The position numbers were made by a program, and so were the translations under genes. From positions 455 through 64,454 of the forward strand of contig CANPZM010000001.1 in the NCBI GenBank assembly GCA_947589065.1: a stretch of DNA of 64,000 nt. Direction: 5' to 3'. Below, piece by piece: positions 2,128 through 63,963 of this stretch. Below the pieces are notes generated by a model. That model had not been told where the DNA came from, did not search any database, and saw only the letters and a program-made list of their open reading frames with translations. Within the stretch, counting starts at the first letter, position 1; each line of letters starts with the position of its first letter. The stretch comes from an uncultured Clostridia bacterium. Lineage in GTDB: Bacteria; Bacillota; Clostridia; TANB77; CAG-508.

Positions 2128-2147
2128 ATACTATTTCTCCTCTAATT

Positions 2148-27958: not shown

Positions 27959-28822
27959 CTATAAAACAACATCTCTTTTCAATAAACCTTTGCTTACTAC
28001 ACCTATTCCCAAAAATTTATTATTATTATAAATTTTATATATTCCATCATCTAACACTTGTGTAAGTTTTACACCATTCAAAAACAATTCTGTTTTTCTA
28101 TCATTTAAAATAATATTTTCAATATTTTTAAATAAATTTTCAATAGAAATAATTTTTTTATCTTTATCAGGGCTTTTTTCTAATTCATCCAATTTAATGC
28201 AATCATCAATGCAAAAATTATCTATTTTAGTTCTTGTTAATTCTTTCATAACACCTATTGTACCTATTTTTTCTGCAATTGATTCGCATAAAGTTCTTAT
28301 ATACGTTCCTTTGGAGCATTTTACTTTAAAAATTATTTCATTATTAGCATAATCAATGTTTTCAATTTTTATATCATATATTTGTATTTTTCGTGGTGTT
28401 CTTTCTATTTGTTTTCCATCTCTTGCATATTCATACAATTTTTTCCCATTTACCTTTATTGCTGAATACATTGGCGGAAGTTGTTCATTTTCTCCAATAA
28501 AAGATTTTATTATACTTATGTATTTATCCTTCAATTCTTCCTTTAATAAAAATTTTTCTGTTTTTATTATATTTCCTTCTAAATCACCTGTATCAGTTTT
28601 TATCCCAATTTTTAGAGTTGCCAAATATTCTTTATCATGTTCAACTAAATACTTGGATATTTTAGTAGCTTTACCAATCATTATTGGAAGCACTCCCATA
28701 GCTTCTGGATCAAGTGTCCCACAATGTCCAACTTTTTTCACATTGAAAATTTTTCTTATTTTAGCAACCACTCCAAAAGAAGTAATTCCTTTTTCTTTAT
28801 TTATCAAAATTATACCATCCAT
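27959..28822 (-). CDS. truB: tRNA pseudouridine(55) synthase
   Basis: 287 aa. GHCGTLDPEAMGVLPI catalytic Asp motif. Confidence 0.9.
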   Translation of the reverse strand: MDGIILINKEKGITSFGVVAKIRKIFNVKKVGHCGTLDPEAMGVLPIMIGKATKISKYLVEHDKEYLATLKIGIKTDTGDLEGNIIKTEKFLLKEELKDKYISIIKSFIGENEQLPPMYSAIKVNGKKLYEYARDGKQIERTPRKIQIYDIKIENIDYANNEIIFKVKCSKGTYIRTLCESIAEKIGTIGVMKELTRTKIDNFCIDDCIKLDELEKSPDKDKKIISIENLFKNIENIILNDRKTELFLNGVKLTQVLDDGIYKIYNNNKFLGIGVVSKGLLKRDVVL

Positions 28823-28900
28823 AATTACACCTTATATCAAATTAGCGATTTCTATGAAATAAAATTTTCATACAAATCGCTAATTTTTATATTTAATAAA

Positions 28901-35345: not shown

Positions 35346-36008
35346 TTATAACTCCAAAAAACTAGACAAATCATAATTAGTTCCATTAGTAGCACATAAA
35401 ATAATTGTTTCTTCCTCAATATCTCTATGTTTTTTTACAACATTTTGCATTTTACTTTCTTTATAATCCAACTTAATCAATTCACCATTTAGTTCCAACT
35501 TATTGTCTACAATTGCCTGATTTAAGTCTAAAAAATTGATTTCTCCATTATTAGTATAAGTAACTAAATATGTACTATTTTTTAATTTTCCTACTTTTAT
35601 ATCTTTTATTTCAAAATTATTAGATTTTATTTCATTAGATTCATTCACATTTATTTTACTATCAGGATACGTCTTTTTGAAATTTTCCTTATTAATTACA
35701 TTTAAATATAATTTATTTTTAGACAAAACAACTTGAAAATTACCATTTAAATCACACTCAATAATGTCATAAGTGGTATCTTCACTCTCTGTTCCAGTTA
35801 CACTCTTATCAGCACTTATGTCAGTATAGTTATTAGTATTATCTTCAACTATATTAGTATTGTTTTCTGTTGCAGTCATAGGACTATCTTTCTCTACATT
35901 TACATTTAATAAAAATATTACTAATCCTACAATTGCTAAAATCATAATAGCAACTGTTAAAATAATAAGGTTTTTAATTTGCTTAGAATTTTTCATATAT
36001 ACCTCCAT
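35346..36008 (-). CDS. Membrane-anchored hypothetical protein
   Basis: 220 aa, N-terminal TM, no recognisable domain. Confidence 0.4.
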   Translation of the reverse strand: MEVYMKNSKQIKNLIILTVAIMILAIVGLVIFLLNVNVEKDSPMTATENNTNIVEDNTNNYTDISADKSVTGTESEDTTYDIIECDLNGNFQVVLSKNKLYLNVINKENFKKTYPDSKINVNESNEIKSNNFEIKDIKVGKLKNSTYLVTYTNNGEINFLDLNQAIVDNKLELNGELIKLDYKESKMQNVVKKHRDIEEETIILCATNGTNYDLSSFLEL

Positions 36009-38955: not shown

Positions 38956-40053
38956 TAGATATATTCCCTTCTTATCTTACTATCCACATAAATTGGTGAA
39001 ACTTCAATACATACCTCATCACCTAATTTTATATCTGAATCTGTAATATCTATTGCTATATGATTCATTCCAATTTTACCAACAATAGGATAATTTTTAT
39101 TTTTTATTTTAACATATATTCTATCATCTTTAATCAATTTAACTAATGAATTTTTTGCATTTCGAATCTTATCAATAAATCTAAAGGTATCATTTTTATT
39201 TCCGACATTCACTCCATCAGAATATCCGAACTGGAGCAATTGCAATCATAGAATTTCTTTTTAATTTATGCATTTTTCCATAGCCAATACTTGTATTTTT
39301 TTCTAAATATTTAATATCTACTATATTAGATTTCAATATACCTATTTTTCGCAAGTTTAATTTATTTTCAACTAATATTCTTCCTAAAAATGCTGAACCA
39401 ATCCTTGATGCATCTAATAACATATCATCATACTTTAAAAATGCAGATGAATTTGCAATATGATACATAGGAATGTTTATATTATTTTGTATTAAATATT
39501 TTTTTAATTCTAAAAATCTATTTAGCTGTAATCTATCATTTTGAGTTCCTTTACTATAATAAGCACAAGATAAATGTGTAAACACACCATCTACAAACAA
39601 GTTTGTAGATTTCTTTATAGTTTCTAAAACATTTTCCTTATCATTATATAAAAATCCATATCTCGAAAATCCAGTATCAATCTTAATTTGTACATGTGCC
39701 TTAATATTTTTTTCTCTTGCCAGTTCATTTAGAATTTGAGCTGATTGAGCATTTCCAATTGTTATTACTATATTTTTATCTAACATTTTTTCCAAGTCTT
39801 CTTTTAGTGACGTAGCCTCTAAACAAAATATTCTTGCAGCAAATTTCAAATTCTTTAATTCTAATGCTTCTTCAACACATGAAACAGCTAAATCTGTAAT
39901 GCCATGTTGAATCAATAATTTAGAAAATTGTTCTAAACCTAAACCATACGCATTTCCTTTTACCATTGCTATAATCTTAGTATCTTGAGCCCTTTTTTTA
40001 ATTTGTTCAATATTAAATTCTAAATCTTCTTTTATAATTTCTAATTTTTTCAT
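38955..40053 (-). pseudogene. alr: alanine racemase interrupted by a +1-nt frameshift near 39225-39232 (N-terminal barrel ORF 39217..40053, C-terminal domain ORF 38955..39245)
   Basis: N-terminal ORF has the PLP-lysine region AMVKGNAYGLG. The two ORFs overlap by 29 nt in different frames. Removing one nt from CCAGTTCGGATAT restores the conserved ...IAIAPVGYSDG... motif across the junction. Confidence 0.7.
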
Positions 40054-47849: not shown

Positions 47850-48110
47850 ATTTTAAATTTGAGAAAGAAGCAAGCATTGCTATGCAAATTTGAGTTGAAA
47901 CACCAGAAACGTATTTTTTTATATTTTGAAGCTTTCCAATCTCAAATTTAACAACGCAAGGCGACTCTTACCTTTCAAATATTTTAAGTTTGAAAAAGAA
48001 GCAAGCATTGCTAGGCAAATTTGAGTTGAAACACCGGAAACGTATTTGTATACGTTGAGGATTTTCAAGCTCAAATTTAACAACGCAAGGCGACGCTTAT
48101 CTTTCAAACT
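47850..48110. repeat. Tandem direct repeat, two copies of about 131 bp at roughly 90% identity, each with nested inverted repeats, abutting the ileS stop codon
   Basis: Copy 1 is 47850-47980 and copy 2 is 47981-48110. Shared cores include GAAGCAAGCATTGCTAKGCAAATTTGAGTTGAAACACC and CTCAAATTTAACAACGCAAGGCGAC. Outer stem AAATTTGAG/CTCAAATTT. Copy 2 has an intact inner hairpin AACGTATttgtATACGTT that is degenerate in copy 1. Confidence 0.85.
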
Positions 48111-50877
48111 ATTCTAAATTCTCTACACAACGACTACAAATATGAGGATGTTCTGGATTCTTTCCAACTGTTTCAGAATACATCCAACATCTTTCACATT
48201 TTTCACCATCAGCTAGTTCTACTTTTACTCCTATTTCAGTATCTTCATCTCGTTTATTATTTTCTATTTCAACTTTTGATACTATAAACACAGTCGTTAA
48301 TAAATCTTTATCATTATATAATTGTTTATATTTATCCTCATTAACAAATAATGTTACTTTGGCATTAAGAGAATGTCCTATAACTTTCTCCATTCTAGCT
48401 TCCTCTAATTTCTTAGATACATCCTCTTTTAATTTTATAATCTTTTCCCATTTTTCTTCTAACTGCTTGTTTTCATATTCTGGTTTGTATACTGGATAAT
48501 CTGTAAGCATAACACTATCAACTTCTTCATCTTTACGATGTGGCATTGCTTGCCATATTTCTTCTGCAGTATAGCATGTCATTGGTGCTAATATTTTAAC
48601 AAGAGCATCCAATATCTCATACATAACTGTTTGTGCAGATCTTCTTTCTAAAGAATCAGCCTTAGAAGTGTATAATCTATCTTTTATTATATCTAAGTAA
48701 AATGTACTCATATCAACAACACAAAACTGATTAATTGCTTGGTATGCATTGTGAAAATCATATTCATCATATGCTTTAGTACACTCTTTGACTAATTTAT
48801 TTAATCTTGTTAATGCCCATTTATCTATTTCTAATAAATCTTTATAAGGCGTTGGTAAATTTACTGGGAAATCATATGTATTTCCTAAAATATATCTAGC
48901 TGTATTACGTATCTTTCTATATACTTCTGTTACCTGCTTTATTATTGATTTTGAAACACTAACATCTGATTTATAATCTGATGATAATACCCAAAGTCTT
49001 AAAACATCAGCTCCTGATTCATTTATTATTTCTTGTGGAGCAATAACATTTCCAATAGATTTAGACATTTTTCTTCCTTGTTCATCTATTGTATATCCAT
49101 GTGTAACAACCTCTTTATAAGGTGCTTTACCTTTAGTTGCAACTGATGTTAATAAAGATGATTGGAACCAACCTCTATATTGATCACTTCCTTCTAAATA
49201 TAAATCAGCATCTGGAAGTCCACGTTCTGCAAGTACTGATTCATGTGTAGAACCAGAATCAAACCAAACATCCATTATATCAGTTTCTTTCTTAAATTCT
49301 GTACAACCACATTCACATTTTGCTCCTTCAGGTAATAATTCCTTTTCAGATAATTCAAACCATGCATTTGAACCTTTTTCTTTAAATATTCTTTGTATTT
49401 TGTCTAAACTTTCTTCAGTTACATATTCTTTTTCACAATCTTTGCAGTAAAATACTGGTATTGGAACTCCCCATGTACGTTGACGAGATATACACCAATC
49501 GTTTCTATCTTCAACCATTTTGGTAATTCTTTCTTCTCCCCATTCTGGATACCATTTTACTGTTTTTATAGCATCTAAGGTTTCTTTTCTAAATCCATCA
49601 ACAGATGCAAACCATTGACTTGTTGCTCTATAAATAACTGGATGTTTACATCTCCAGCAATGTGGATAAGAGTGGTTTATTTCTTTTGCTGCAAGTAAAT
49701 ATCCATTTTCATCAAGCCACTTGATTATTTCTTTATCTGATTTAGCATAAAACATACCAGCAAAAGGACCAGCTTCAGCTGTTTGATGTCCTTTTCCATC
49801 AATGCAAACTATCATATCTAAACCATTTTTTAATCCACACAAATAGTCTTCTTTACCATAACTTGGTGCTGTATGAACTGCACCTGTACCACTATCTAAA
49901 GTAACATCTACTGTATCAGTACTTCCTAGAACTACTTTTGAATCTCTATCTAAAAATGGATGTCTACATATAATTCCTTCTAAAACAGAACCTTTCATTT
50001 CATCAACAACTTTATAATCTTCGATTCCTGCTACTTGCATTACTTCTTCAACTAAAGCAGATGCCATTATTAGTTTTTCATCTCCAACTTTTACGAAACT
50101 ATAATCATAATCTGCTCCAATAGTTATACCTGTATTGCCTGGCAAAGTCCATGGAGTTGTTGTCCATATTACAACAAATGTATTTTCTTCATTAAATAAC
50201 CCATTAGCTTCTTTAACAGGAAATTTTACATATGCAGTATTTGAATTTATATTTTTATATTCTATTTCAGCTTCAGCCAATGCAGTTTCACAATCACTAC
50301 ACCAATAAACTGGTTTTAATCCTTTATATATATATCCTTTTTTATACATATCAGCAAAAACTCCAATTTGCTTTGCCTCCATTTGTGGTTGATATGTTAT
50401 ATAAGGATTTTCCCATTCTCCCAAAACACCTAGTCTTTTGAAACCTTCTGTTTGTTTATCTTTATATTGCATAGTAAAATTTTTACAAGTGTCTCTAAAC
50501 TTAGTTACTGGTATTTCATCTCTGTTTAATCCTAATGCTTGAATTGCCTTCTTTTCAGTTGGCATTCCATGTGTGTCATAACCTGGTATAAAAGGTGTCC
50601 AATATCCTTTTAAACTTTTATATCTAACTATTGTATCTTTTAATACTTTATTTAGTGCGTGACCTATATGTATTTCACCATTAGCATAAGGTGGTCCATC
50701 ATGTAGTACAAAAGGAGTTTTTCCCTTATTTTTTTCTAGCATTTGACGATAAATATGTTTTTTTTCAAACACTTCCTCTAATATTTTAGGTTCTTTTTCC
50801 GGTAATCCAGCTCTCATTTGAAAATTTGTTTTAGGCAAATTTAAAGTTGAACTATAATCCATTTTCTCTTCGCTCAT
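48109..50877 (-). CDS. ileS: isoleucyl-tRNA synthetase
   Basis: 922 aa. HIGH (HIGHAL) and KMSKS motifs, CP1 editing domain, C-terminal zinc finger (C-terminus ...CERCW...CSRCVENLE). Confidence 0.95.
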   Translation of the reverse strand: MSEEKMDYSSTLNLPKTNFQMRAGLPEKEPKILEEVFEKKHIYRQMLEKNKGKTPFVLHDGPPYANGEIHIGHALNKVLKDTIVRYKSLKGYWTPFIPGYDTHGMPTEKKAIQALGLNRDEIPVTKFRDTCKNFTMQYKDKQTEGFKRLGVLGEWENPYITYQPQMEAKQIGVFADMYKKGYIYKGLKPVYWCSDCETALAEAEIEYKNINSNTAYVKFPVKEANGLFNEENTFVVIWTTTPWTLPGNTGITIGADYDYSFVKVGDEKLIMASALVEEVMQVAGIEDYKVVDEMKGSVLEGIICRHPFLDRDSKVVLGSTDTVDVTLDSGTGAVHTAPSYGKEDYLCGLKNGLDMIVCIDGKGHQTAEAGPFAGMFYAKSDKEIIKWLDENGYLLAAKEINHSYPHCWRCKHPVIYRATSQWFASVDGFRKETLDAIKTVKWYPEWGEERITKMVEDRNDWCISRQRTWGVPIPVFYCKDCEKEYVTEESLDKIQRIFKEKGSNAWFELSEKELLPEGAKCECGCTEFKKETDIMDVWFDSGSTHESVLAERGLPDADLYLEGSDQYRGWFQSSLLTSVATKGKAPYKEVVTHGYTIDEQGRKMSKSIGNVIAPQEIINESGADVLRLWVLSSDYKSDVSVSKSIIKQVTEVYRKIRNTARYILGNTYDFPVNLPTPYKDLLEIDKWALTRLNKLVKECTKAYDEYDFHNAYQAINQFCVVDMSTFYLDIIKDRLYTSKADSLERRSAQTVMYEILDALVKILAPMTCYTAEEIWQAMPHRKDEEVDSVMLTDYPVYKPEYENKQLEEKWEKIIKLKEDVSKKLEEARMEKVIGHSLNAKVTLFVNEDKYKQLYNDKDLLTTVFIVSKVEIENNKRDEDTEIGVKVELADGEKCERCWMYSETVGKNPEHPHICSRCVENLE

Positions 50878-51212
50878 ATTATTCCTCCTATATATTATTT
50901 TTAATTTTTACATATATTTATATAATAGGAAAGGTATACTTTCCCATTATATAAAAAAACAATTCATCACATAGGACGAATTGTTCCGCGTTACCACCTA
51001 ATTTAATTCTAATATAAAATATTAAAAATCTCTCCAGCATTTTATAACGTAAAATGAAACGTCATACCTTACTCTATTAATTTATTTCAGATATGAAACT
51101 CCAAGGTGATAATAAATAAATAGTTCTTACCAAAATCGCACCATATTTTTGGCTCTCTTTAAGACATTTTTTATTTATCTTGTCCTTATCTAAGTTTTTC
51201 TAATAATTTTAA
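50878..51212 (-). ncRNA. T-box riboswitch leader of ileS (probable Ile specifier AUC; antiterminator/terminator switch)
   Basis: Minus-strand AAAUUAGGUGGUAACGCGG (the reverse complement of 50985-51008) matches the T-box consensus AAUUAGGGUGGUACCGCG. An overlapping terminator hairpin AACAATTC...GAATTGTT is followed by U7 just upstream of the ileS RBS. AUCA lies in a candidate specifier loop. The length of about 335 nt is typical. Confidence 0.75.
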
Positions 51213-51344: not shown

Positions 51345-51623
51345 CTATTTTTTATTTACTAAATCTTTTAATGCTTTACCAGCTTTGAATACTGGAGCTT
51401 TTGATGCAGGTATTTTGATTTCTTCTTTAGTTTGTGGGTTTCTTCCTTTTCTAGCTGCTCTTTTTCTTACTTCAAAAGAACCAAATCCAACTAATTGAAC
51501 TTTATCTCCCTTTGCTAATGATGCCATAATTGTTTCAACTACTGCGTTAATTGTTGATTCAGCACCTTTTTTTGTGTCTCCTGTTTTTGCAGCTACTGCT
51601 GCGATTAATTCAGCTTTGTTCAT
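51345..51623 (-). CDS. hup: DNA-binding protein HU
   Basis: 92 aa. MNKAELI...[22 protein letters not shown] signature. Confidence 0.9.
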
Positions 51624-51765: not shown

Positions 51766-53403
51766 TTATTTGCATAAATTAAACTTTTTTAAAAGTCTGT
51801 AAATGCTTTCGCCTCTAGGCAACATTTCAATTTCTTCTTTAGAAAAAATACGTAAAATTAACACAGATATTAAGAATACTATAACAGCAATAAAAATTGT
51901 TATTATTGTTAAAAGTCTAATTGCAATATAAGGTTTTAATAACCAAAATACTCCATATGAAATAATACTCATAATCATTGTAGCCATAATAGGTCTGATA
52001 GATAATCTAGTCAATGAAAAATTTAATTTAGTAGTTTTTCTTAGTTTTGTATATACTATTAAAAATGATATTAAATGACAAGCAATTGAGCCAATTGCAG
52101 CTCCAACCTCATATATACCAGCAATTGGAATTAAAATAATATTTAAAATTGCCTTTATAATAACTCCTAAACCTAAAGCTATTGTAGGAGTTTTTACATC
52201 TCCAAAACCATGTAATACACCTTGTAAAGTTTGAGCCAATATAGTAAAAATAATAGTGAAAGCTGATACAGCTAGTACTACTCCGCCATCACTTGCTTGA
52301 GGAAACAATAATAATAGTATCTCCTTTGCATATAAAAACATTCCAATTGTACAAGGTAAACCTATTAATAAACTTATTAATAAAGAAAAAGATATTCTTT
52401 TATTAATAGTATCTTGATCTTTTTTTGCATTAGCAGCTGAGATTGCAGGGACCAAAGCTGTAGCAAAGGCAATATTAAGAGCAAGAGGTAATGATGTTAA
52501 GACATCTACTTTAGCACTCAATATACCATACTTAATTTTAGCTGTTTCTTCACCTAATATCGGTTTCAAAATTCTAACAACAGTCATTGAATCAACTAAT
52601 TTATTAAAAGAAGATAATATTGAAGCAAATGAAATTGGAATCGCAATCCATAATATTGTCTTCACTATACTCTTAAACGTTCTATTTTCTTTTTTTACTC
52701 CTGGTGCATTCTTTACAGGTATAAGTTTCTTTTCTTTTATATAATACCTATATAAATAATATGTACTAAATAATATTGCTGTTGTTGTAGCAGCAGTAGC
52801 TGCAGCAGCCATATAAACAGTATTTAAACTTGATATAATTACAGCAATTTCTACAAATATAATTGTAAGTATTGTTTTCCAAAATTGTTCAAAACTTTGT
52901 GAATTAGCTGTAGCTCTCATCTGTTCTCTACCATTAAAATATCCTCTAAATACAGATGAAACAGCAACAAAAAATACTCCAGGAGACAATATCATAAGAG
53001 TTATCTTAGATTCAGGAATTTCTAACCATACATTTGAAATATAACTTGCACCCAAAAATAAGAATAATGTTCCACACATTCCTATTAGCCCAAAAGTTAA
53101 AATTGCAATTTTAAATACTCTATGAGCTCCTTCATTATCTCCAATTGCCACTCTTTCCGAAATTAATTTTGAAATTGCATTTGGAATTCCAATTGATGAA
53201 ATAGAAAGCAATAATGCATATATCTGATAGCTCCCCATATATAAAGCATTACCTGTATCTCCAAATCCCTTTCTATTTGTCAAATATAATGTTTGAACTA
53301 ATCCTAATATTTTTATCAATACTTGTGAAAATATTAAAACTAACACTCCCTGTAAAAATGTTTCTTTTCTAAACTTGTTTTTCTTTTCTGTTTTTTCTCG
53401 CAT
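51766..53403 (-). CDS. MOP-superfamily polysaccharide/lipid-II-type flippase (SpoVB-like)
   Basis: 545 aa with about 14 TM segments. The N-terminal FLQGVLVLIFSQVLIKILGLVQTLYL region is typical of the SpoVB/Wzx/MurJ-like family. Confidence 0.6.
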   Translation of the reverse strand: MREKTEKKNKFRKETFLQGVLVLIFSQVLIKILGLVQTLYLTNRKGFGDTGNALYMGSYQIYALLLSISSIGIPNAISKLISERVAIGDNEGAHRVFKIAILTFGLIGMCGTLFLFLGASYISNVWLEIPESKITLMILSPGVFFVAVSSVFRGYFNGREQMRATANSQSFEQFWKTILTIIFVEIAVIISSLNTVYMAAAATAATTTAILFSTYYLYRYYIKEKKLIPVKNAPGVKKENRTFKSIVKTILWIAIPISFASILSSFNKLVDSMTVVRILKPILGEETAKIKYGILSAKVDVLTSLPLALNIAFATALVPAISAANAKKDQDTINKRISFSLLISLLIGLPCTIGMFLYAKEILLLLFPQASDGGVVLAVSAFTIIFTILAQTLQGVLHGFGDVKTPTIALGLGVIIKAILNIILIPIAGIYEVGAAIGSIACHLISFLIVYTKLRKTTKLNFSLTRLSIRPIMATMIMSIISYGVFWLLKPYIAIRLLTIITIFIAVIVFLISVLILRIFSKEEIEMLPRGESIYRLLKKFNLCK

Positions 53404-53591
53404 ATAAAAATCCTTTCTATAAATATATACATTATATTTATATTAAGGAATTATTGCAAGTATTTTATTTTTTATATTTTAAATGTAATTTTTTACTATA
53501 TTTTTCGTACTATTTTTTCAAAAAGTATTGTTTTTTTCGCCTTTTTGTAGGATAATAGAATTGTAAATTTATGTGAAAGAGAGGAAATATT

Positions 53592-55931
53592 TTGTTAAAG
53601 TCAATTGGTAGTTTTATAGGAAAAAATGTAGATAAATTCTTAAAAATCTTAAAAACTGATAGAAACACTTTTTTCACCTATATATTAACTCTAGCAACTG
53701 CATATATCTGTATTGATAGACTTTTTGAAATGATTTTTTTAATTTTCTTTGGAGTATCAGTTTCATACTGGGGACCTTTCATGTATACTCTTGCATATGC
53801 GTGCCCTGTATTTGCTTTTTTATTTGGTGCTGCTTCAAAATTTGCAGTAGATGATGTTCAAAAATTTTCTATGTTTAAGTTATATTACATAGCTTTATAT
53901 ATAATAGGTCTATCTATGGCAATGCAATGGGTTAATCAAGCATTATGGTTCTTACTATTCATGTTACCAAATTATGTAGGAATAGTTACTCAATTTATGG
54001 ATCTGATAAAACCCGCTTTCATGGCAATCGCATGTTACTTACCAGTAATCACGATTCTACCTGTTATAAAGAAAATGCTTTTAACATATGCAGATACTAA
54101 AGACATAAGAGATTCAGTTGCTGATTATAATGGTATTTCTCTTGAGGCTCCTAGTGAAGCAGTTGGACCATATACATGTGAAATGCTTATATGTAGAGAT
54201 ATAGAAAAAGGTAAAATAATAAAAACACCCGAATCTAGAAGATTTGAGGCTACACTAATTGTTGGTGTTTCTGGTTCAGGAAAAACAACAATGGCATTTG
54301 AGCCAATGATTGCTCGTGACATTGAGAAAAAATTCTTTTTCAAAGAAGCTTCTAAGGAACTTGGATTTGCGGCATTAAAAACAGGAATAGCTTCAATTAG
54401 AGAACCATTTTCTAATGAATATATAAATGAACATTTTTCATTAAATATGTTAGAAATTCGACCCGGAAAAGAAAAATTATTTAATACATATTTGCATAAA
54501 TTAATATACTATTCTTCAAGTAATCAAACTGTATTTAAAGATTTAGGTCTTACATATATTGCACCCGATTATGAGTCAATTTCACATATAATTGAAGTAT
54601 TAGATAATTATGAAATGAAATATAATTTAGTGGATCCAAATGATATGAATTCCATTGGTTTAAATCCTTTCATATTTGATGATCCAGTAAAAACATCTTT
54701 AGCAATATCAGCCGTACTTAAAAGAATGTATGATACAAATGAAGTTACTACACAACAAGCTTATATGCAAAACATTACAACACAAGCAATTGAAAACTTG
54801 TCATTACTATTAAAAGAAGTATATCCAAAAACTCACAATGGAACATTACCTAATCTTGAAGATTTGCTAATGATGTTAAATAATTTTGAACTTGTAGAGC
54901 AATTTTGCGAAAAAATGAAAAAACTTCCAGAACTTGCAGAAAAATATAAAATTCTACTTACCTATTTCAAAAACAATTTTTATGCAAATTCTCAAGGCTA
55001 TAATGATACTAGGAAATCATTACAAGCAGCCAGTGCTCAACTAGAAAATCTACTTCGTTTTCCTGGTGTAAGAAATATTTTATGTAATAGAACAAATAAT
55101 ATTAACTTTGATAATGCTTTAAAAAATGGTGAAATAACATTAATTTGTACAAGACGTGGTGATTTAGGAGCATCTGTAAATAAAGCTTTTGGTTTATTTA
55201 CTCTTCTATTAATGCAACATTCTATAATATCTAGACCAGGTATTGAAAAATCAAGATTACCACATTTCTTATATATTGATGAATTTCCTCCATTTGTATG
55301 TAAAGCCACAGAAGATTTCTTCACACTATTTAGAAAATACAGAGTTGGTTTAATTATATCTGCCCAAAACTTATCACAGTTTGGAACTAATACTAATTTA
55401 ACAAATTCACAAAATTATAGACAAACTATACTTGCAAACTGCACAACAAAAATAGTATTTGGTAATAATACCCCAGAAGATAATGAATGGTGGTCAAAAG
55501 AATTCGGTGATAAACGTGATTGGTTATTTAAAATGGATTATAATACTGGCGATGTTCAATATGATAAAAAATACAAAGATATCGCTTGGGGTTATAAAGC
55601 AAACTTCCAAGCCGGAAAAGTACAATCACAAAAATTCAAAGCAATTATATATAAAACTAGAGATATAAAAGGAAAAATGCTTGTTGGTAAAGGAAAACTT
55701 GATTTTATTGAATCAAAACATAAAGAAAAACATCATTCAAAACAATTTAATTTTTCAAAATATTATGATACTGCTACAACTCAAGAAGCTTCAGAATCAT
55801 CATTTGTAAATGATTCTCAATCATTTGATGAAGATCCAATTAAATATAATAATACAAATGATTCAAGAATGTTTTTAGAAAGTGATGGTGCTATAACTTA
55901 TACAATTAATAAACCATCTAAAAAGAGTTAA
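53592..55931 (+). CDS. VirD4/TraG/TraD-like type IV coupling protein-family ATPase with a polytopic N-terminal membrane domain (orphan)
   Basis: 779 aa. TTG start with SD GAGAGG. Four to five N-terminal TM segments. Walker A GVSGSGKTT, Walker B FLYIDEFPPF. T4CP-type motifs RVGLIISAQNLSQFG (cf. VirD4 IRFHIIAQSLGQL) and TKIVFGNNTPEDNEWWSKEFG (cf. VirD4 RIAFGANDPATAE.LSK.LG). Confidence 0.6.
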   Translation: MLKSIGSFIGKNVDKFLKILKTDRNTFFTYILTLATAYICIDRLFEMIFLIFFGVSVSYWGPFMYTLAYACPVFAFLFGAASKFAVDDVQKFSMFKLYYIALYIIGLSMAMQWVNQALWFLLFMLPNYVGIVTQFMDLIKPAFMAIACYLPVITILPVIKKMLLTYADTKDIRDSVADYNGISLEAPSEAVGPYTCEMLICRDIEKGKIIKTPESRRFEATLIVGVSGSGKTTMAFEPMIARDIEKKFFFKEASKELGFAALKTGIASIREPFSNEYINEHFSLNMLEIRPGKEKLFNTYLHKLIYYSSSNQTVFKDLGLTYIAPDYESISHIIEVLDNYEMKYNLVDPNDMNSIGLNPFIFDDPVKTSLAISAVLKRMYDTNEVTTQQAYMQNITTQAIENLSLLLKEVYPKTHNGTLPNLEDLLMMLNNFELVEQFCEKMKKLPELAEKYKILLTYFKNNFYANSQGYNDTRKSLQAASAQLENLLRFPGVRNILCNRTNNINFDNALKNGEITLICTRRGDLGASVNKAFGLFTLLLMQHSIISRPGIEKSRLPHFLYIDEFPPFVCKATEDFFTLFRKYRVGLIISAQNLSQFGTNTNLTNSQNYRQTILANCTTKIVFGNNTPEDNEWWSKEFGDKRDWLFKMDYNTGDVQYDKKYKDIAWGYKANFQAGKVQSQKFKAIIYKTRDIKGKMLVGKGKLDFIESKHKEKHHSKQFNFSKYYDTATTQEASESSFVNDSQSFDEDPIKYNNTNDSRMFLESDGAITYTINKPSKKS

Positions 55932-55971
55932 AATTTTGTTAATAGATGTGCAATATAATATCCTATTATGT

Positions 55972-56013
55972 AAAAAGGAGTACAAAAAAATTAATTTTTG
56001 TACTCCTTTTTTT
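55972..56013. terminator. Bidirectional intrinsic terminator between the convergent T4CP-like gene and the P-type ATPase gene
   Basis: Perfect 17-bp inverted repeat AAAAAGGAGTACAAAAA-aattaa-TTTTTGTACTCCTTTTT with A/T runs on both sides. Confidence 0.8.
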
Positions 56014-56020
56014 CACTCTT

Positions 56021-58642
56021 CTAAATCCATTCATGATATTTCTTAATATATATCTTTTTCGCAATCATTGCAATAAAACAATATAAAATTGTTACAGTCA
56101 AGATTAGAACAATGTACTCAAACGTTATTGGAACAAAACCAAGTATTTTCCCTAAAAAAGTAAATGGAACAGCTATACCAATAATTGATAATAATATTGA
56201 TGACAAATACACCATCTTATTAGCATTACTCTGTACAAAAGGAATTTTAGTAGTTCTAATTATATGCATACCAGCTAAGTTTGATACTATACTATATGAA
56301 AACCAGACAGTTTGAAATGTAGCCACATCTCTTATTCCCAAAGCAAACCACATTCCAGAAAATATAATTAAATCAAAAGCAGAACTAATCGGTCCCATAA
56401 ATACCATAAAATTCTTTAAACTTTTTACATCGAATTTTTTGGGTTTCTGTAAAGCTTCTTTATCAACATTATCAAAAGGTAAAGTCATTTGTCCAAAATC
56501 ATACAATAGACCTTCAACTAAAAGTTGAATTGGTGTTTCTGGCAAGAATGGTAAAAATATACATGCTATAATTCCTGATATTACCTCACCAAAATTAAAA
56601 CTCGTAGATAATTTAATATATTTTAATAAATTTGCAAATGTACGTCTTCCTTCATCTACTCCGTCTAATAAAACATTTAAATCTTTTTCAAGTAAAATTA
56701 CATCTGCAGATTCTTTCGCAATATCAACAGCTGTATCTACAGATATTCCAACATCTGAATTTAGTAATGATGGACTATCATTTATTCCATCTCCCATATA
56801 TCCAACTACATTACCACTTTCTTTTAATATTCTAACAATCCTTGCCTTCTGAATTGGAGACAATTTTGCAAATATATTATTATCTCTAAGTAATTTTTGG
56901 ACACCCCTATCTGTTAATTTATCTATTTTAGAACCTTCTATAATATTTCTTGTATTTATATTAACTTTATCACAAATTGCCTTTGTTACATATACATTAT
57001 CACCTGTTAATACAATGACTCTAATTCCTAATTTATTTAATTTTTCAATAGATTCTTTGGCAGATGCTTTAGGTGGATCTAAGAAACCAACAAATCCCAA
57101 AAATATCATATTTTTTTCTTCATCTACGGAAAAATTTGCACTATCATTAAATTCTTTCTTTTCACATAATCCAATAACTCTTAACCCCAATTTATTAAGT
57201 TCTTTACTAATATTTAAAACATTTTGTCTAATTTTTCCTGTTATTTCTTCTACTTTATTATTAATTTTTACTTTTGTACAAATTGATAATATTTCTTCAA
57301 TAGCACCTTTAGTTATCATGCAAATTTCATTGCTTTCATCTTGTACTATAACAGATAATCTTCTACGCGAAAAATCAAACGGAATTTCATCAATTTTTTT
57401 ATAATTCTGAGCTAAATCAGAAATACCATTATTATCTGCACGTTTTATAATTGCATCATCTATATTTCCTTTTAATCCAGTTTGAAATGTAGCATTTAGA
57501 AAAGCATATTTTAAAATTGATTCATCAGTAACACCTGATGCATTTAAGTATTTTTCAAGAACAATTTTATCTTCTGTTAAGGTTCCTGTTTTATCAGTGC
57601 ACAAAATATTCATTGAGCCAAAACTTTGAATGGAATCTAGCTTTTTTACAATTGTTTTTTTCTTTGACATCCTAATAGCACCCTTTGATAAACAAGAAGA
57701 TAAAATTACTGGTAATAATAATGGTGTAATTGTAATTGCAACCGCAACTGCAAAAGTAAATGCAACTAATAAATCATGTTTCCATGCATTCACTAAAAAT
57801 ATAATAGGAATTGCTACAACCATAAAACGAATTAACAATTTACTTATATTTTCAATGTTTCTTTCAAAAGCAGTCTTAGGTTTACCCAAATTAAGGGTAT
57901 GTGCTATTTTTCCAAAATAAGTATTATCTGCTATTTTTACAACAACACCTATTGCACTACCAGAAACTACATTCGTACCCATAAAACAAATCGTATCTAA
58001 ATCTGTAATGCTTTCAATGTCATCCATATTTACTTCTGATATACTATTTTTTTTAATTAAATCAGATTCTCCTGTTAGCGAAGATTGTCCTACATATAAA
58101 TCCTTTGATTCAATAATTCTTAAATCTGCAGGTATCATACTTCCTGCAGAAAGAGCAACAATATCTCCTATTGTTACATCTTTTATAGGAATATCAATCT
58201 TTTTTCCATCTCTTATAACAGCAGCCGTAGTCTGAACTAATTCTTTTAGCTTTGAAGCTGCCTTATTTGATTTATACTCTTGTGTAAATTCCAAAGTTGT
58301 ACTAACTATAACTAATGTAATAATAACAATAATATTAGCAAAACTAGGATTCTCTGGTAAAAAAACATCTGTGTAAAATAAGATTACAATAATTCCTAAC
58401 AATATACTATTAAACGGACTAAATAAACTTTGTGTAAAATAATAATACCATTTTTTATCTTTTGCCTTTTTTACTTCATTTTTTCCATAATTTTTCTGAT
58501 TTTCCATTACTGCCTGGCTAGAAAGTCCATTTTTCTCATCTGTCTTATAATCTTTTAAAATTTCATCTTTATTGGCAGTACAACATTTTCCATATAATTT
58601 TTTTATATCTATAACATCTTTAGTATTTTGCAAACAAATCAT
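56021..58642 (-). CDS. Cation-transporting P-type ATPase (MgtA-like P3B/P2 type)
   Basis: 873 aa. DKTGTLT phosphorylation motif, TGES, TGDN, GDGINDSPSL hinge, 10 TM segments. Confidence 0.8.
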   Translation of the reverse strand: MICLQNTKDVIDIKKLYGKCCTANKDEILKDYKTDEKNGLSSQAVMENQKNYGKNEVKKAKDKKWYYYFTQSLFSPFNSILLGIIVILFYTDVFLPENPSFANIIVIITLVIVSTTLEFTQEYKSNKAASKLKELVQTTAAVIRDGKKIDIPIKDVTIGDIVALSAGSMIPADLRIIESKDLYVGQSSLTGESDLIKKNSISEVNMDDIESITDLDTICFMGTNVVSGSAIGVVVKIADNTYFGKIAHTLNLGKPKTAFERNIENISKLLIRFMVVAIPIIFLVNAWKHDLLVAFTFAVAVAITITPLLLPVILSSCLSKGAIRMSKKKTIVKKLDSIQSFGSMNILCTDKTGTLTEDKIVLEKYLNASGVTDESILKYAFLNATFQTGLKGNIDDAIIKRADNNGISDLAQNYKKIDEIPFDFSRRRLSVIVQDESNEICMITKGAIEEILSICTKVKINNKVEEITGKIRQNVLNISKELNKLGLRVIGLCEKKEFNDSANFSVDEEKNMIFLGFVGFLDPPKASAKESIEKLNKLGIRVIVLTGDNVYVTKAICDKVNINTRNIIEGSKIDKLTDRGVQKLLRDNNIFAKLSPIQKARIVRILKESGNVVGYMGDGINDSPSLLNSDVGISVDTAVDIAKESADVILLEKDLNVLLDGVDEGRRTFANLLKYIKLSTSFNFGEVISGIIACIFLPFLPETPIQLLVEGLLYDFGQMTLPFDNVDKEALQKPKKFDVKSLKNFMVFMGPISSAFDLIIFSGMWFALGIRDVATFQTVWFSYSIVSNLAGMHIIRTTKIPFVQSNANKMVYLSSILLSIIGIAVPFTFLGKILGFVPITFEYIVLILTVTILYCFIAMIAKKIYIKKYHEWI

Positions 58643-58699
58643 CTTCCTTCTTTATAAACATTACGTATTTTATATTATTTTTCGTTATATAAAAATTTT

Positions 58700-59647
58700 T
58701 TATCCGCTATTATTAATAAATTTAGAAACAAAAAATCCTTCCATATATTTTGACGGTAAAATTTTAATTGACTTATCAATTGTTCTATTTAATCCACTAT
58801 TATCTCCATTAATTGCATTTTTTATATCAATATCAATGTTTACTAACTTCAAATCAAAATTATTTAATGCCCAATCTAAAATAAATTCATTTTCCTGTTT
58901 ATTTATTGTGCAAGTAGAATATACTAGTTCTCCTCCACTTTTTAAAGCTTTACAAGCACTTGCAAATAATTTTTTTTGCATTTTAGTTAAGTCATTGATT
59001 GTCTTTTCAGACCAATTTTTATAACTCATTGGTTTAGTTGCAATAAAACGTCCTTCACCACTACATGGCGTATCTAATAACACTTTATCAAATTTCTGTT
59101 CAAAATTTTCTCCTAACTTTTCTCCCCTTCCATTCATTACTTCAATAATGCTTGCACCTTGCATTTCAACATTATATTTTAATTTTTCTACTCTAATCTT
59201 GTCTAATTCATTTGCTAAAATATACCCTTTATTTTCCATTAAACATGCCATTTGAGTAGATTTACTTCCTGGTGCAGCAGTCATATCTAAAGCCATTTCC
59301 CCAGGTTTAGGAGCTAATACTAATGGAGGAATCATACTAGATAAACTTTGAATATACAAATACCCATTTTTATATAATTCTAATTTTTGAATATCTTTTT
59401 CTCGTGCATTTTTAATTATTAATGCATCATTATACCATGGAACTCTTTCAAATTTTATATTAAGTTCTTTAAAATCTTTCATTAAATTCTGTATATCATA
59501 TTTTAATGTATTCACTCTAAGTGTTACATATCTATCATCAGTCATTCCTAATAAAATTTTGTCAACAGTAATAGGTGAATAATTATCATACAAATTTTCA
59601 ACAAATTTTTGAGGTAAATGTCTCTTTATTTCTGTAATTGATAACAT
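58700..59647 (-). CDS. RsmB/RsmF (NOL1/NOP2/Sun) family RNA m5C methyltransferase
   Basis: 315 aa. SAM-binding DMTAAPGSKS and catalytic DTPCSGEG motifs. Confidence 0.75.
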   Translation of the reverse strand: MLSITEIKRHLPQKFVENLYDNYSPITVDKILLGMTDDRYVTLRVNTLKYDIQNLMKDFKELNIKFERVPWYNDALIIKNAREKDIQKLELYKNGYLYIQSLSSMIPPLVLAPKPGEMALDMTAAPGSKSTQMACLMENKGYILANELDKIRVEKLKYNVEMQGASIIEVMNGRGEKLGENFEQKFDKVLLDTPCSGEGRFIATKPMSYKNWSEKTINDLTKMQKKLFASACKALKSGGELVYSTCTINKQENEFILDWALNNFDLKLVNIDIDIKNAINGDNSGLNRTIDKSIKILPSKYMEGFFVSKFINNSG

Positions 59648-60814: not shown

Positions 60815-62698
60815 TTATATATTTAAATTTTCTTTAAAAAATGACTGTACCTCATCTGCTGAAAGTTGTTCTTTCTCGCAAAGAATTGATGAAAGCTTCA
60901 TCAAAATTTGTTTATTGCTATCTATTATCTTTTTTGTACTCTCATACAATTCGCTACATATTTTTTCAGCTTTTTCCATAGCAGAGGTATCTATATTTTT
61001 GTTATATGATATTTCTCCTGAAACTTTTACCATATAAGAACCAGCCATAGCATATCTTCCTACCATTTGTAATACCAATTTACTTGCAACTTCTAAATCA
61101 TTACTTGCTCCACTAGAAACATCGTTGAATATTACTTCTTCAGCTGCCCGTCCTCCATAGCAAACTTGAATTTCCTTTTCAATATCAGATTTTCTTAAAT
61201 ATTCACTATCAGACGATTCAAACAAGTTATATCCACCAGCTTTTCCACGTGGTACTATAGAGATTCCTAAATTAGCAGTTTCGGGTTTTACAATAGCTGA
61301 AACAATAGCATGACCCGCTTCATGAACCGCAGTCAATTTTTTATCTGACTCTACAATCTTTTTAGATTTTTTCTGAATACCAATCCTTACTCGTGCAATT
61401 GCTTCATCTATTTCTGACATAGAAATATATCCTTTTTCTCTATTCACGGCTAATATAGCAGCTTCATTGAGAACGCATTCCAAATCAGCCCCACAAAAGC
61501 CAATAGTTCTTTTAGCAATTTCACTTAATATTACATCTTCAGAAAAAACTTTATTTCTTGCATGAACCCTGAGAATTTTTTCTCTTGCTACAATATCCGG
61601 CATTGGAATATAAATGTGTCTATCAAATCTTCCACGCCTTGTTATTGCAGAGTCTAAAACCTCAAGATGGTTTGTAGATGCGATAACAATAACATTATCT
61701 ACACTTGTAAATCCATCAATTTCAGCAAGTAACTGATTTAAAGTCTGTTCACTATACGACTGACCACTATACCTATCGCGAGCAATTGAATCAATCTCAT
61801 CAATAAAAATAATACAAGGGGCAGATTTTTTAGCAATTTCAAAAAGTTTTCTAACTTTGTCAGCACCAACTCCGACAAACTTATTATCAAAATTTGAACC
61901 ACTCTCATAAAAGAATGGAACATTAGCTTCCCCTGCAATTGCTTTTGCAAGAAGAGTTTTTCCTGTTCCAGGTTCTCCATTGACAATAATGCCTTTTGGT
62001 GGTCTTGCACCCATCAGCTGATACACATATGGATTTTTTAAAAAATCTACAATTTCTTCAAACTGCTCTTTTTCCTCATCTAGACCTGCAACATCTTCGA
62101 AAGTAACTTTAGAAGTAACTGGTTCAATTTTTATATTATCACCTAGCACTCCTCCCAAACTACTTTCAAGCGTCTTAGATGACCTTTTTAGCATTTTAAA
62201 AAGAAATACAATCCATAAAACTGGTAATAATAAACTGATTAAATTAAAGATCGTATCAGCCGCACCTACATCAGATTTAACAGCATTAATTTCTATTTCA
62301 GCTCCATTTTCAATCTTCCGCTGAATAAATTCCATAAAACTATCTTTGCTTGGAATTTCCGCTTTTGCCTCTTTACCATCATTTAATACAATAGATACCT
62401 CATCTTCAGAAATATCTAATTTAGATACTGAATCACTTTGTATATAATTTACAAGTTTATCATACGTTATTAATTCAGGTTTCTTTTTAAACAATGGTAA
62501 AATTATTCCAAAAACAAAAACTTCCATAAATAAGATAAATAATAACACATGTACCAATCTAATTTTGCGAATATTTAATCTTCTCTTATTAGGATTACCT
62601 CCTTCATCACTATCTGTGGGATTATTGCTTCCCATGTTCTCTGTTGTCCGTGAGTCCAATTTATCATTTGAACTCAAATACCTAACCCCATTTGTCAT
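60815..62698 (-). CDS. FtsH-family AAA+ zinc metalloprotease, second paralog with an N-terminal extension
   Basis: 627 aa. [20 protein letters not shown] 45-aa polar N-terminal extension precedes the first TM. Confidence 0.85.
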
Positions 62699-62952: not shown

Positions 62953-63963
62953 TTACATTTCTTTATTCATATCTTCATTCATTTGTTTCTCTTCTTGAGG
63001 TAAAGCTAAACTTACATCATTCCATACCCTATTAACATATGATCTCAAATCTTGTTTAATTGGTTTAGTTTGATATTTTTTTAGTGTTACAACAGAGTCA
63101 TCAAATGTCATATTTCCTGGATTTCCATAATATGAATTCATTTCCAATATCTTTTTTCTATATCCAAAAATACCGACTTTAGGCATAGGATAAACTTCTT
63201 TTTCTCTTACTGGCTGTTCAAGAACATTTTCTAGGTTTTCCTTATCTTCTTCTTTTATTTGAATTCCACAATCATGATATTTTTGAAGAAAATCTCTTAC
63301 ACTTTGCGTCATTCCATTTCCTTTAGCATATTCCATTAAATCTACAATACTTTTTTCATTTCTTTCACTTGTATCAATATTATTTTTTTGAAATTCCAAA
63401 TTATATCTTAACAGATCATAATATTTTTTCTGCCCAAATATTCTTCCAAGTACTCCTATCTTTTGTGAATCAATTGAATCAATTTGCTCTTGTATTTTCT
63501 GTTTTTCTGAATCTTTAATTAATAATTGTATTTTAGTTTGTAAATCTTTGTTGAATTTCTCATTTTGTGACCTTTTCCAGTCATCCATAGAAGACTCAAA
63601 ATCACTATTATTAATTATTTTTTCAACAACAATTTGCCTAGCCTCTGCAGATTTTTCATCATCACTACGACATAATTGAGACATTTTTGAAATGGTATAT
63701 GCAACTTCTGATAAATCATCTCCATTTTTTTCCATACCCAATAAATCACAAATTCCATTTACTTTATTTTGTCTATGTCTTATATTTTCAGCATATTTTT
63801 CAATTTGTTCTGCCAAAGCATCTCTTTGCATCTGTTCTTCGTTCTTTTCATTTTCAATTTGTTCCAAATGTTCTTCTCTATAATCCTCTAAGTTCTTATC
63901 AGATACAACAAATGTTTCCTTTTCTTTTGACTTTTTTATTTCATCATCTATAAATTCCATCAT
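62953..63963 (-). CDS. Hypothetical coiled-coil-rich protein
   Basis: 336 aa, E/K/Q-rich and predicted helical, no motifs recognised. The start lies near the window end. Confidence 0.4.
   Translation of the reverse strand: MMEFIDDEIKKSKEKETFVVSDKNLEDYREEHLEQIENEKNEEQMQRDALAEQIEKYAENIRHRQNKVNGICDLLGMEKNGDDLSEVAYTISKMSQLCRSDDEKSAEARQIVVEKIINNSDFESSMDDWKRSQNEKFNKDLQTKIQLLIKDSEKQKIQEQIDSIDSQKIGVLGRIFGQKKYYDLLRYNLEFQKNNIDTSERNEKSIVDLMEYAKGNGMTQSVRDFLQKYHDCGIQIKEEDKENLENVLEQPVREKEVYPMPKVGIFGYRKKILEMNSYYGNPGNMTFDDSVVTLKKYQTKPIKQDLRSYVNRVWNDVSLALPQEEKQMNEDMNKEM

Follow-up and report, generated by a model that had tools for sequence, protein, structure and literature searches.

Gene organization of the locus

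The DNA analysed here is a stretch of 64,000 nucleotides (nt) from an uncultured Clostridia bacterium (assembly GCA_947589065.1, contig CANPZM010000001.1, positions 455 to 64,454), called the window below, and the subject is a gene at 53592-55931 on its plus strand, an open reading frame (ORF) of 779 amino acids (aa) with a TTG start, which encodes a membrane ATPase resembling type IV coupling proteins (T4CPs). A preliminary description of the window had presented this gene as the only credible one on the plus strand, and the ORF count agrees with it: the minus strand holds 42 of the 45 ORFs of at least 150 aa, and the two other plus-strand ORFs, 28356-28862 and 58572-59024, are spurious overlaps of longer minus-strand genes (TruB and MgtA/RsmB-F, respectively). 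In a Pfam scan of all other ORFs of at least 150 aa, housekeeping or envelope functions were found for all except three without a family match (15791-16276, 35346-36008 and 62953-63963). The housekeeping set comprises PolA, IF-2, NusA, RimP, TruB, RuvB, two FtsH, IleRS, CysRS and TyrRS, further genes encode SHMT, PBP1, RNase R, FemAB, HU and MgtA, and DNA of this kind takes up the 53 kb of the window before the T4CP-like gene and the 8 kb after it. The same scan found no relaxase, VirB4, integrase or transposase among these ORFs, as the preliminary description had stated for the first two and for integrases, and neither a tRNA gene nor an att-like flanking repeat was found in the window. The composition is host-like, again as described before, with a GC content of 0.279 at 54-56 kb, inside the range of 0.24-0.32 in the rest of the window. 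GC skew changes from about -0.3 in the surroundings to +0.01 at the T4CP-like gene, which is expected because this gene lies on the opposite strand; the uniform orientation of the other genes and the skew together suggest that it is transcribed head-on to replication.

The gene is divergent from a flippase gene and convergent with mgtA (Table 1). The TTG start and the first residues of the protein are kept in close relatives, and both the ribosome-binding site (RBS) and a promoter-like block are nearly invariant in the clade of at least 76% identity, where the block reads TTGTNT, 17 nt, GATAAT. This block probably works as the promoter of the T4CP-like gene; it was not listed by a consensus scan because its -35 element is weak (3 of 6). 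At the other end, a hairpin resembling a bidirectional intrinsic terminator begins 40 nt past the end of the gene, with arms (55972-55988 and 55995-56011) that are complementary at 17 of 17 positions (-19.8 kcal/mol, z = -7.2). The perfect 17-bp stem noted in the preliminary description is thus real, and only its end moves, from 56013 to 56011, as the former position included two trailing T's; a consensus terminator scan missed this hairpin because the T-run belongs to the stem. A 20-nt inverted repeat at 53408-53452 was considered as an origin of transfer (oriT) and rejected, since it overlaps a conserved AT-rich block by the flippase start and is most simply the flippase promoter. An Rfam scan found only the ileS T-box described below and no structured RNA near the T4CP-like gene. 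As a separate observation, the two copies of a 23-nt imperfect direct repeat (53576-53598 and 55920-55942, 83% identity) fall almost precisely on the start and the stop of the ORF; the repeat is AT-rich, and chance is its probable explanation.

Table 1. Coordinates of the T4CP-like gene, its predicted domains and signals, and its neighbours (window numbering)
Feature	Position	Strand	Remarks
T4CP-like membrane ATPase, coding sequence	53592..55931	+	stop included; TTG start; Pfam and AlphaFold/Foldseek; dN/dS 0.04-0.13
Promoter-like block TTGTTT, 17 nt, GATAAT	53528..53556	+	nearly invariant in eight loci of the clade of at least 76% identity
RBS GAGAGGA	53579..53585	+	6 nt 5' of TTG; equivalent GAAAGTGGTGA kept in relatives
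N-terminal membrane domain, residues 24-166	53661..54089	+	four long predicted transmembrane helices after an N-terminal helix (2-20); hydropathy and AlphaFold, pLDDT 70-90
Walker A / P-loop GVSGSGKT, residues 225-232	54264..54287	+	G225, G228, G230, K231, T232 invariant in 41-sequence alignment
All-alpha insert between Walker A and B, about residues 365-512	54684..55127	+	nine consecutive helices (AlphaFold); TrwB_AAD_bind match begins just past it
Walker B FLYIDE, residues 559-564	55266..55283	+	D563, E564 invariant in 41-sequence alignment; lies in TraG-D_C match
C-terminal beta-rich domain, about residues 640-702	55509..55697	+	predicted strands 640-647, 662-670, 684-690, 696-702; conserved in family
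Disordered acidic C-terminal tail, residues 729-779	55776..55928	+	pLDDT about 30; short motifs DPI..., D-x-AIT
Bidirectional intrinsic-terminator-like hairpin	55972..56011	.	17-bp perfect stem, 6-nt loop, A-run and T-run either side; between convergent T4CP-like gene and mgtA
MOP-superfamily flippase, SpoVB/MurJ-like	51766..53403	-	divergent neighbour; Polysacc_synt 84 bits, MurJ 71 bits
HU (Bac_DNA_binding)	51345..51623	-	conserved beside flippase; syntenic context
MgtA (Mg2+ P-type ATPase)	56021..58642	-	convergent neighbour; TIGR01524 929 bits

Family and predicted fold of the protein

Against Pfam, the T4CP-like protein scores 38.1 bits with TraG-D_C (cut-off 22) and 24.1 bits with TrwB_AAD_bind (cut-off 20.5), and these matches are confined to residues 529-643 (560-643 and 529-642, respectively). 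AAA_10, DUF87 and FtsK_SpoIIIE gave no match, and many orthologs carry precomputed matches to T4SS-DNA_transf. No NCBIfam model matches the protein, a single-sequence search of the PDB was empty, and an exact-sequence look-up returned no record. When a profile of 17 family members was used against the PDB, only DotL/IcmO of Legionella was found (E value 0.009), via colinear Walker A and Walker B segments.

Prediction by AlphaFold from 41 sequences gave a model with a predicted local distance difference test score (pLDDT) of 79 and a predicted TM-score (pTM) of 0.69. The preliminary description had reported a multiply membrane-spanning N-terminus and Walker A and B motifs; the model places four long transmembrane helices at residues 24-53, 62-81, 88-123 and 128-166, and both Walker motifs are intact. 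The membrane domain also aligns to the T4CP of a Clostridium beijerinckii plasmid, starting at residue 31, and alignments of the whole model with TrwB and Cagβ run to about 510-570 columns. In Foldseek searches of the PDB, the best matches were Cagβ/VirD4 (E 7e-12) and TrwB (about 1e-9, TM-score 0.62-0.68), followed by the C-domain of DndH (7e-8, TM-score 0.68), DotL (1e-6), VirB4 (2e-6), HerA (5e-6) and FtsK (1e-2), so that the matches to VirB4 and HerA are four to six orders of magnitude worse than those to T4CPs. Both profile and structure comparison therefore agree with the preliminary assignment to the coupling proteins rather than to another family of ASCE (additional strand, catalytic glutamate) NTPases, and on sequence profiles and predicted fold the protein is a member of the T4CP (VirD4/TraG/TrwB) superfamily.

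The Walker residues are invariant throughout the 41 family sequences, down to 26% identity, and the protein thus appears to be conserved as an active enzyme. Moreover, W634, G639, F682, G699 and F705 are invariant around the C-terminal beta domain, and the DP-I and AIT motifs of the tail align across the family; the acidic tail may bind a partner. With its anchor of four to five helices, all-alpha insert, extra C-terminal beta domain and acidic tail, the protein represents a distinct clostridial subfamily.

Conservation of the locus

More than 3,321 full-length homologs of ~780 aa were found in a large protein collection, the sole name given being 'TraM recognition domain-containing protein', and at the 50%-identity cluster level the family is compact, with 88 representatives at E <= 1e-30. 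In a one-genome-per-species scan, run with an alignment of eight closer sequences, a relative was present in at least 493 genomes. The best 80 of these are all metagenome-assembled genomes (MAGs) of uncultured gut Clostridia, from rabbit, human, sheep, chicken and mouse, and they include Candidatus Scatovivens and one closed 1.8-Mb chromosome.

The position of the gene is conserved over at least 80 species-level genomes. Of the 67 loci having enough upstream sequence, 65 have a flippase gene on the other strand no more than 3 kb upstream, with HU beyond it, and the orthologs at these flippase-linked loci are 52-81% identical to the window protein. Of the spoVB/P-type ATPase synteny expected in the preliminary description, the flippase side therefore stands and the other side does not: MgtA is found downstream in 6 of the 10 loci that make up the closest clade, which has at least 76% identity, and nowhere beyond. 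The remaining four have RsmB/F as the first gene that can be recognised (directly in loci L008, L009 and L010, and about 7 kb on in L014), which makes mgtA a local, clade-specific insertion into the gap, and it occupies the place that RR and S1, described below, have in sister clades. The flippase itself scores 212 bits with the SpoVB model TIGR02900, under its cut-off of 372; it is a conserved syntenic context of the T4CP-like gene, and a functional partnership is only putative. In locus L008 (~2036-3162), from a close relative, the otherwise conserved intergenic region between flippase and T4CP-like gene contains an insertion of ~900 bp with clearly higher GC and a small ORF, which looks foreign and sits at the divergent promoter region.

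More distant chromosomal branches, at 37-39% identity, have housekeeping contexts without the flippase. Over all chromosomal loci, surroundings of housekeeping type are seen in four clades. In L088 and L093, the T4CP-like gene is divergent from pth-L21-L27, in a spore-former, and in L090 and L092 it lies between a Tad-pilus operon and pth-mfd-prsA. The Tad/Flp-type operon (L090 1-7908, L092 1-9841) is directly upstream of the T4CP-like gene and comprises a TadZ-like ATPase, T2SSE, two T2SSF, Flp1_like, DUF5702, DUF6382 and a prepilin peptidase. L090 and L092 count as one clade, because their T4CPs are 87% identical, and no Tad gene was found in the window or at any other chromosomal locus; the link of the T4CP-like gene to Tad pili is a lead only. 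Contexts of mobile elements, with integrase, ParM-like and DnaA_N genes, are limited to the most distant relatives (26-31% identity).

The ratio dN/dS (omega) of the T4CP-like gene is 0.04-0.13 in the clade of the window, which is mostly below that of the adjacent flippase and no higher than the 0.04-0.21 in the sister clades with adjacent RR, these values being approximate as dS is near saturation (about 1). Purifying selection, the conserved position and the content of the flanks bear on the possibility that the gene is cargo of an integrative and conjugative element (ICE), an integrative mobilizable element (IME), a prophage or a plasmid-derived island extending beyond the window. The family is of mobile-element origin, with relatives of 27-30% identity on plasmids or by integrase or ParM-like genes, and the gene is the sole one on its strand. 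Yet it is embedded in housekeeping DNA on both sides, orthologs 52-81% identical occupy the same position among the same neighbours, composition is host-like, and no tRNA or att repeat is present. No homolog of plasmid type IV secretion system (T4SS), integrase or partition genes was found in 91 chromosomal loci (1.67 Mb), and a phage collection gave one marginal partial match only (E 3e-6, 21% of query). The island reading, which the preliminary description had named as a challenge to its own, is effectively refuted.

Partner genes in sister clades

In sister clades, a convergent gene of 311 aa (RR) lies 3' of the T4CP-like gene, directly after a gene for an S1-domain protein on the same strand. 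RR was found within 3 kb downstream in 45 of 71 loci, and at 4.5-6.7 kb in five more. By clade, it is present in 8 of 8 loci of the clade of 69-71% identity and in 0 of 9 in that of the window; a weak RR match in the window, at 17316-17729, proved to be a GH3 glycosidase. RR is more conserved than the ATPase, with 63-100% identity, omega 0.02-0.19 and fixed length, and none of its 5,265 database matches is named.

The chromosomal RR matches Pfam Replic_Relax (PF13814) at 30.4 bits (cut-off 25.3) over residues 53-161. PF13814 stands for the MOBC relaxase superfamily, which is akin to PD-(D/E)XK restriction enzymes (PMC5357655; PMC12857230). The predicted structure of RR is a winged helix followed by an alpha/beta domain, and E247, D248 and K250 are conserved in the chromosomal RR family. 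The Pfam match weakly suggests that RR is MOBC/Replic_Relax-like, and it is named here as a tentative candidate relaxase. The S1 protein has weak RpsA-like matches. As a further observation on RR (e.g. L006 12517-13452, minus strand), residues 1-45 and 115-138 are predicted to be disordered (pLDDT <50) and yet are almost invariant, and even the plasmid homolog shows the N-terminal motif VED..IK....FAI in recognisable form; these segments are candidate partner-binding peptides.

At L006 12517-17160 (minus strand), lspA, wecG, rluD, rluB, S1 and RR follow one another closely on the same strand, about 2-25 bp apart. S1 and RR, as former mobile-element genes, appear to have become embedded in a housekeeping operon in sister clades. 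This block of S1, RluB, RluD, WecG and LspA was found neither in the window nor in the flanks of its close clade, which would agree with either loss or relocation of the RR-S1 pair. The preliminary description had called the T4CP-like gene an orphan, which is correct for the clade of the window and does not extend to the sister clades, where S1 and RR lie downstream, nor to plasmids, where the trio also occurs. In the light of these comparisons, the window gene is apparently the surviving visible part of a three-gene module of DNA-transfer type.

Since the module partners are gone from the side of the gene in this clade, and since transcription is head-on to the inferred direction of replication, the gene could be thought a relic, left by an element that integrated long ago, which is decaying and no longer functions. 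The frame of 779 codons is nevertheless intact with all catalytic and family-invariant residues kept, omega remains low and mostly below that of the flippase, and promoter, RBS and terminator are conserved. A relic is already contradicted by these selection data, and we give it almost no credence.

Relatives on plasmids

Among proteins from real replicons, those closest to the ATPase come from six C. botulinum plasmids and one of C. beijerinckii, with 27-30% identity over 81-89% of the query. For RR, the nearest plasmid relatives are on those seven plasmids and two of Thermoanaerobacterium. When PLSDB was searched with a plasmid T4CP at E <= 1e-20, exactly those nine among 72,556 plasmids were retrieved, and a full-length RR is present on the same nine. 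They include C. botulinum plasmids of pFWSKR40E1 type (NZ_KT897275-80; loci L095/L096 from NZ_KT897278.1), C. beijerinckii p1 (NZ_CP107023; L094 from NZ_CP107023.1) and Thermoanaerobacterium pMU3262 (NC_017998; L097/L098 from NC_017998.1). The tandem of S1 and then RR is present in three plasmid lineages, with a gap of 18-22 bp against 14 bp in chromosomes. Between chromosome and plasmid, all three proteins align near full length: the T4CPs at 29-30% identity (E 1e-50 to 1e-56), RR at 26-30% (E 1e-18 to 1e-23) and S1 at 28-31% (E 1e-14 to 1e-19).

These plasmids also carry genes for a VirB4-like ATPase (DUF87/AAA_10), a membrane protein with a T4SS_pilin domain, DUF3854, a ParM-like protein, Rad52 and a tyrosine recombinase, and no homolog of any of them was found in the 91 chromosomal loci. 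The VirB4-like ATPase and the T4SS_pilin-domain protein are encoded on the C. botulinum plasmid examined (pFWSKR40E1). On pMU3262, a Tad-type operon lies directly upstream of S1-RR (L097 4826-10749), and a canonical replication-relaxation gene is near the T4CP. MOB-suite types the nine plasmids, all of them large, as 'non-mobilizable', the RR/S1 pair being unannotated; they may be conjugative with an unrecognised relaxosome.

The spread of the trio over plasmids and chromosomes also bears on whether the T4CP-like protein works with the flippase instead, as an ATP-driven exporter or assembly factor for protein or glycopolymer in envelope or spore-cortex biogenesis, with no role in DNA. No feature of the locus is indeed more conserved than this divergent pair with its short common intergenic region (65/67), the sister-clade neighbourhood is rich in envelope genes (LspA, WecG/TagA-like, Mur ligase, MurL), and the substrates recruited by some T4CPs, DotL and Cagβ among them, are proteins instead of DNA (PMC12857230). 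However, this pairing is limited to the clade of 52-81% identity, deeper clades having pth-L21-L27 or Tad contexts, and the plasmid homologs are likewise without a flippase; the linkage that spans both plasmids and chromosomes is that with RR and S1. Moreover, in L004 (8036-9674) and L005 (339-1977), from a close relative, the flippase is called as two ORFs (371 and 182/189 aa) and may be frameshifted or split, as short high-scoring segments of the flippase in L010-L012 also suggest, and the T4CP-like gene beside it remains intact, with an omega of about 0.1, which argues against an obligatory functional pairing. L050 suggests that the T4CP-like gene was retained after complete loss of the flippase. 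We regard an envelope function with the flippase as improbable.

Another possibility is a role in defence against plasmids or phages, for which the protein would supply the NTPase, much like the C-domain of DndH or mad8 of MADS, and RR the nuclease effector. PADLOC reports mad8 (42.7 bits, E 1e-11), the DndH C-domain is the best structural match outside the T4CPs, and RR has a nuclease-like domain with weak matches to restriction enzymes. The mad8 model, however, scores the plasmid T4CPs and the distant P0414 equally and therefore reports general T4CP similarity. No other gene of MADS (mad1-7, methyltransferase), Dnd (DndF/G) or another defence system was found in the window or the flanks, and RR and S1 gave no meaningful PADLOC match. 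Defence systems are typically patchy and island-borne, unlike this gene with its fixed core-genome position and omega of about 0.1, and a defence function has very little probability in our view.

Proposed origin and function

Based on family, selection, synteny and the linkage to partner genes, we consider it probable that the window gene encodes a domesticated DNA-translocating ATPase, which came from a plasmid transfer module and was fixed in chromosomes of gut Clostridia. As an evolutionary statement, the word 'domesticated', already used in the preliminary description, is well supported, because the position is conserved under purifying selection and T4SS, integrase and partition homologs are missing from the 91 loci. 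The further claim that the protein acts as a translocase rather than as part of a conjugation system is not established, as it possibly takes part in DNA transfer via machinery supplied in trans.

In the scheme that we propose, a plasmid module of three genes (T4CP, S1 and RR) would have lost its mobility genes in one lineage, become fixed in the core chromosome and been inherited vertically from then on. In the sub-clade of the window, a rearrangement just downstream of the T4CP-like gene would have removed the S1-RR pair, which would now be elsewhere in the genome or lost, and RsmB/F and, in some lineages, MgtA would have taken its place. The T4CP-like protein would form a membrane-anchored hexamer and, by analogy with coupling proteins, hydrolyse ATP to bring a substrate up to the membrane or through it, the substrate being either DNA or a nucleoprotein complex made ready by RR and S1. 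The conduit might be the T4SS pore of a co-resident conjugative element, used in trans as IMEs with VirD4 and MobC do, a pilus system such as the Tad type found in two lineages, or the enlarged membrane domain of the protein itself.

Several points weigh against this explanation. Neither RR nor its S1 gene was found in the window, nor within 10 kb in the nine of nine loci of its clade, so that the window protein would work either with partners encoded elsewhere or without partners. A single Pfam match, mainly to the winged-helix part, links RR to MOBC, the plasmid RR has no Pfam match, and a fold search with RR gave weak matches only (PaqCI E 0.017, FokI 0.026, up to Card1; E 0.017-0.07). In the plasmid RR, the putative E-D-x-K motif lacks its K and so is not conserved. 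The S1 protein could be a generic RNA-binding protein. No oriT-like element or repeat array was recognised, no cultured organism with the chromosomal form was among the matches seen, and the omega values carry the uncertainty of a dS near saturation. Transport of a substrate by the T4CP-like protein is proposed from analogy, and coupling proteins are not known to export DNA without a channel.

A more specific possibility is that the T4CP-like ATPase, S1 and the MOBC-like protein form a host-owned device for DNA export or transfer, without its own T4SS and maintained in the core genome of this clade of gut Clostridia, which we regard as rather doubtful. If it were true, the device would mobilise chromosomal DNA via borrowed pores or Tad-type pili, in a donation resembling that of Hfr (high frequency of recombination) strains, or serve a new membrane-associated DNA transaction, and the clade of the window would be a case where the ATPase is kept under full selection though both partners are no longer adjacent.

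The assignment to the family is not new, because automated annotation already recognises the protein as T4CP-like. In the literature searched, there was no description of a core-genome T4CP without a channel, of its linkage to S1 and MOBC-like genes, or of the trio family of nine plasmids. Coupling proteins are regarded as parts of mobile elements, and the known host recruitments of conjugation machinery concern whole T4SSs that have lost the relaxase. The case in gut Clostridia would be the reverse, since the coupling and substrate-processing half (T4CP, MOBC-like and S1) is kept without the channel. It has a single fixed place in the chromosome and is at least as strongly conserved as the housekeeping genes around it, in at least several hundred species that are abundant but uncultured. 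Should the T4CP-like protein transport DNA, chromosomal genes could be exchanged in the gut microbiome by a route so far hidden; with any other activity, it would be a new cellular use of the T4CP fold. The trio moreover points to a plasmid family (neurotoxin-associated plasmids of C. botulinum, C. beijerinckii p1 and pMU3262) with an unrecognised candidate relaxosome despite its typing as non-mobilizable.

Other features of the window

Some observations concern genes away from the T4CP-like locus. A T-box leader (Rfam RF00230, 102.7 bits, E 4e-22) lies at 50969-51201 on the minus strand, upstream of the IleRS gene (48109-50877), and accounts for the long intergenic gap between HU and ileS; it is an ordinary feature. 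Two full-length FtsH paralogs (AAA and Peptidase_M41), at 36234-38018 and 60815-62698, both minus, are 23 kb apart in this small low-GC genome, and two cytidylate kinase paralogs, at 575-1234 and 18932-19621, also minus, lie within 18 kb and score 251 and 166 bits on PF02224. Two membrane glycosyltransferases of PMT_2 type flank a SpaA/prealbumin-fold protein and a protein of 904 aa with a weak VWA match (9171-10808, 20566-21234, 21240-23954 and 24136-25638, all minus), which may be a cluster for surface-protein glycosylation or a pilin-like adhesin. Finally, an alanine racemase-like ORF at 39217-40053 (minus strand, 278 aa) has just the first 36 residues of the C-terminal domain and may be truncated, or a YggS-like pyridoxal phosphate (PLP) protein.

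Comparison with known systems

Among characterised proteins, TrwB of R388, Cagβ of Helicobacter pylori and DotL/IcmO of Legionella are the best matches to the predicted fold (E 7e-12 to 1e-6, target-normalised TM-score 0.5-0.68). Like these canonical T4CPs, the window protein has an anchor in the membrane and, after it, a P-loop domain bearing an all-alpha insert, as well as Walker A and B and the TraG-D_C and TrwB_AAD_bind signatures. It differs from them in sequence, with only 10-14% identity in structural alignments, and in architecture: canonical T4CPs typically have two transmembrane helices, whereas four to five are predicted here, together with the extra C-terminal beta domain and the acidic tail. 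The genetic context is also different, as no T4SS, VirB4 or relaxase gene is nearby, and the gene descends vertically as part of the core genome instead of being carried by a mobile element.

The T4CPs of the nine plasmids, annotated as 'TraM recognition domain-containing', are the nearest relatives on replicons, share much of the membrane domain and have the same partners, S1 and then RR. They are longer (902-1001 aa), plasmid-borne and have VirB4-like and T4SS_pilin neighbours, and the plasmids themselves are uncharacterised. FtsK, SpoIIIE and TcpA, pumps of double-stranded DNA, belong to the same ASCE superfamily of membrane-anchored hexameric DNA translocases, and SpoIIIE and FtsK are chromosomal DNA pumps with a host function. 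The fold match to FtsK is poor (TM-score 0.2-0.38), however, and the window protein has the all-alpha insert of VirD4 type. The DndH C-domain (7ES4) and mad8 of MADS exemplify a use of the same ATPase fold independent of a T4SS; the window gene differs in having no Dnd or MADS partners, another membrane domain and partners of RR/S1 type, and in being part of the core genome, not of an island. For Thermus, a 'transjugation' has been described in which a single membrane ATPase (TdtA) drives DNA donation independently of a T4SS, which is an analogy only.

Coupling proteins adjoin and co-evolve with relaxases and bring processed DNA to the channel, and T4CPs cooperate also with type IV pili and type VII secretion systems (PMC12857230). 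The clostridial CstD4, of the cst locus of C. sordellii pCS1-1, is of VirD4 type, with a PF12696 domain, Walker motifs and two transmembrane helices, and is genetically required for plasmid transfer (PMC5770547). The window protein is like CstD4 in being a clostridial coupling protein of VirD4 type with Walker motifs, but CstD4 belongs to another lineage and is encoded inside a full T4SS locus (CstB4, CstB6, hydrolase), paired with a MobMG/MOBP HUH relaxase (PMC5770547). Class 8 IMEs of streptococci combine a VirD4 coupling protein, a MobC/PF13814 relaxase and a serine integrase, and use a pore in trans (PMC5357655). In these IMEs, a coupling protein and a relaxase of MOBC type form a compact module without its own T4SS, and the chromosomal trio, with a candidate relaxase, would resemble them in this. 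The IMEs are mobile, sporadic and equipped with an integrase, whereas the chromosomal trio has a fixed site, no integrase, an added S1 gene and conservation at the level of clades, and in the window the relaxase-like partner is not adjacent to the T4CP-like gene.

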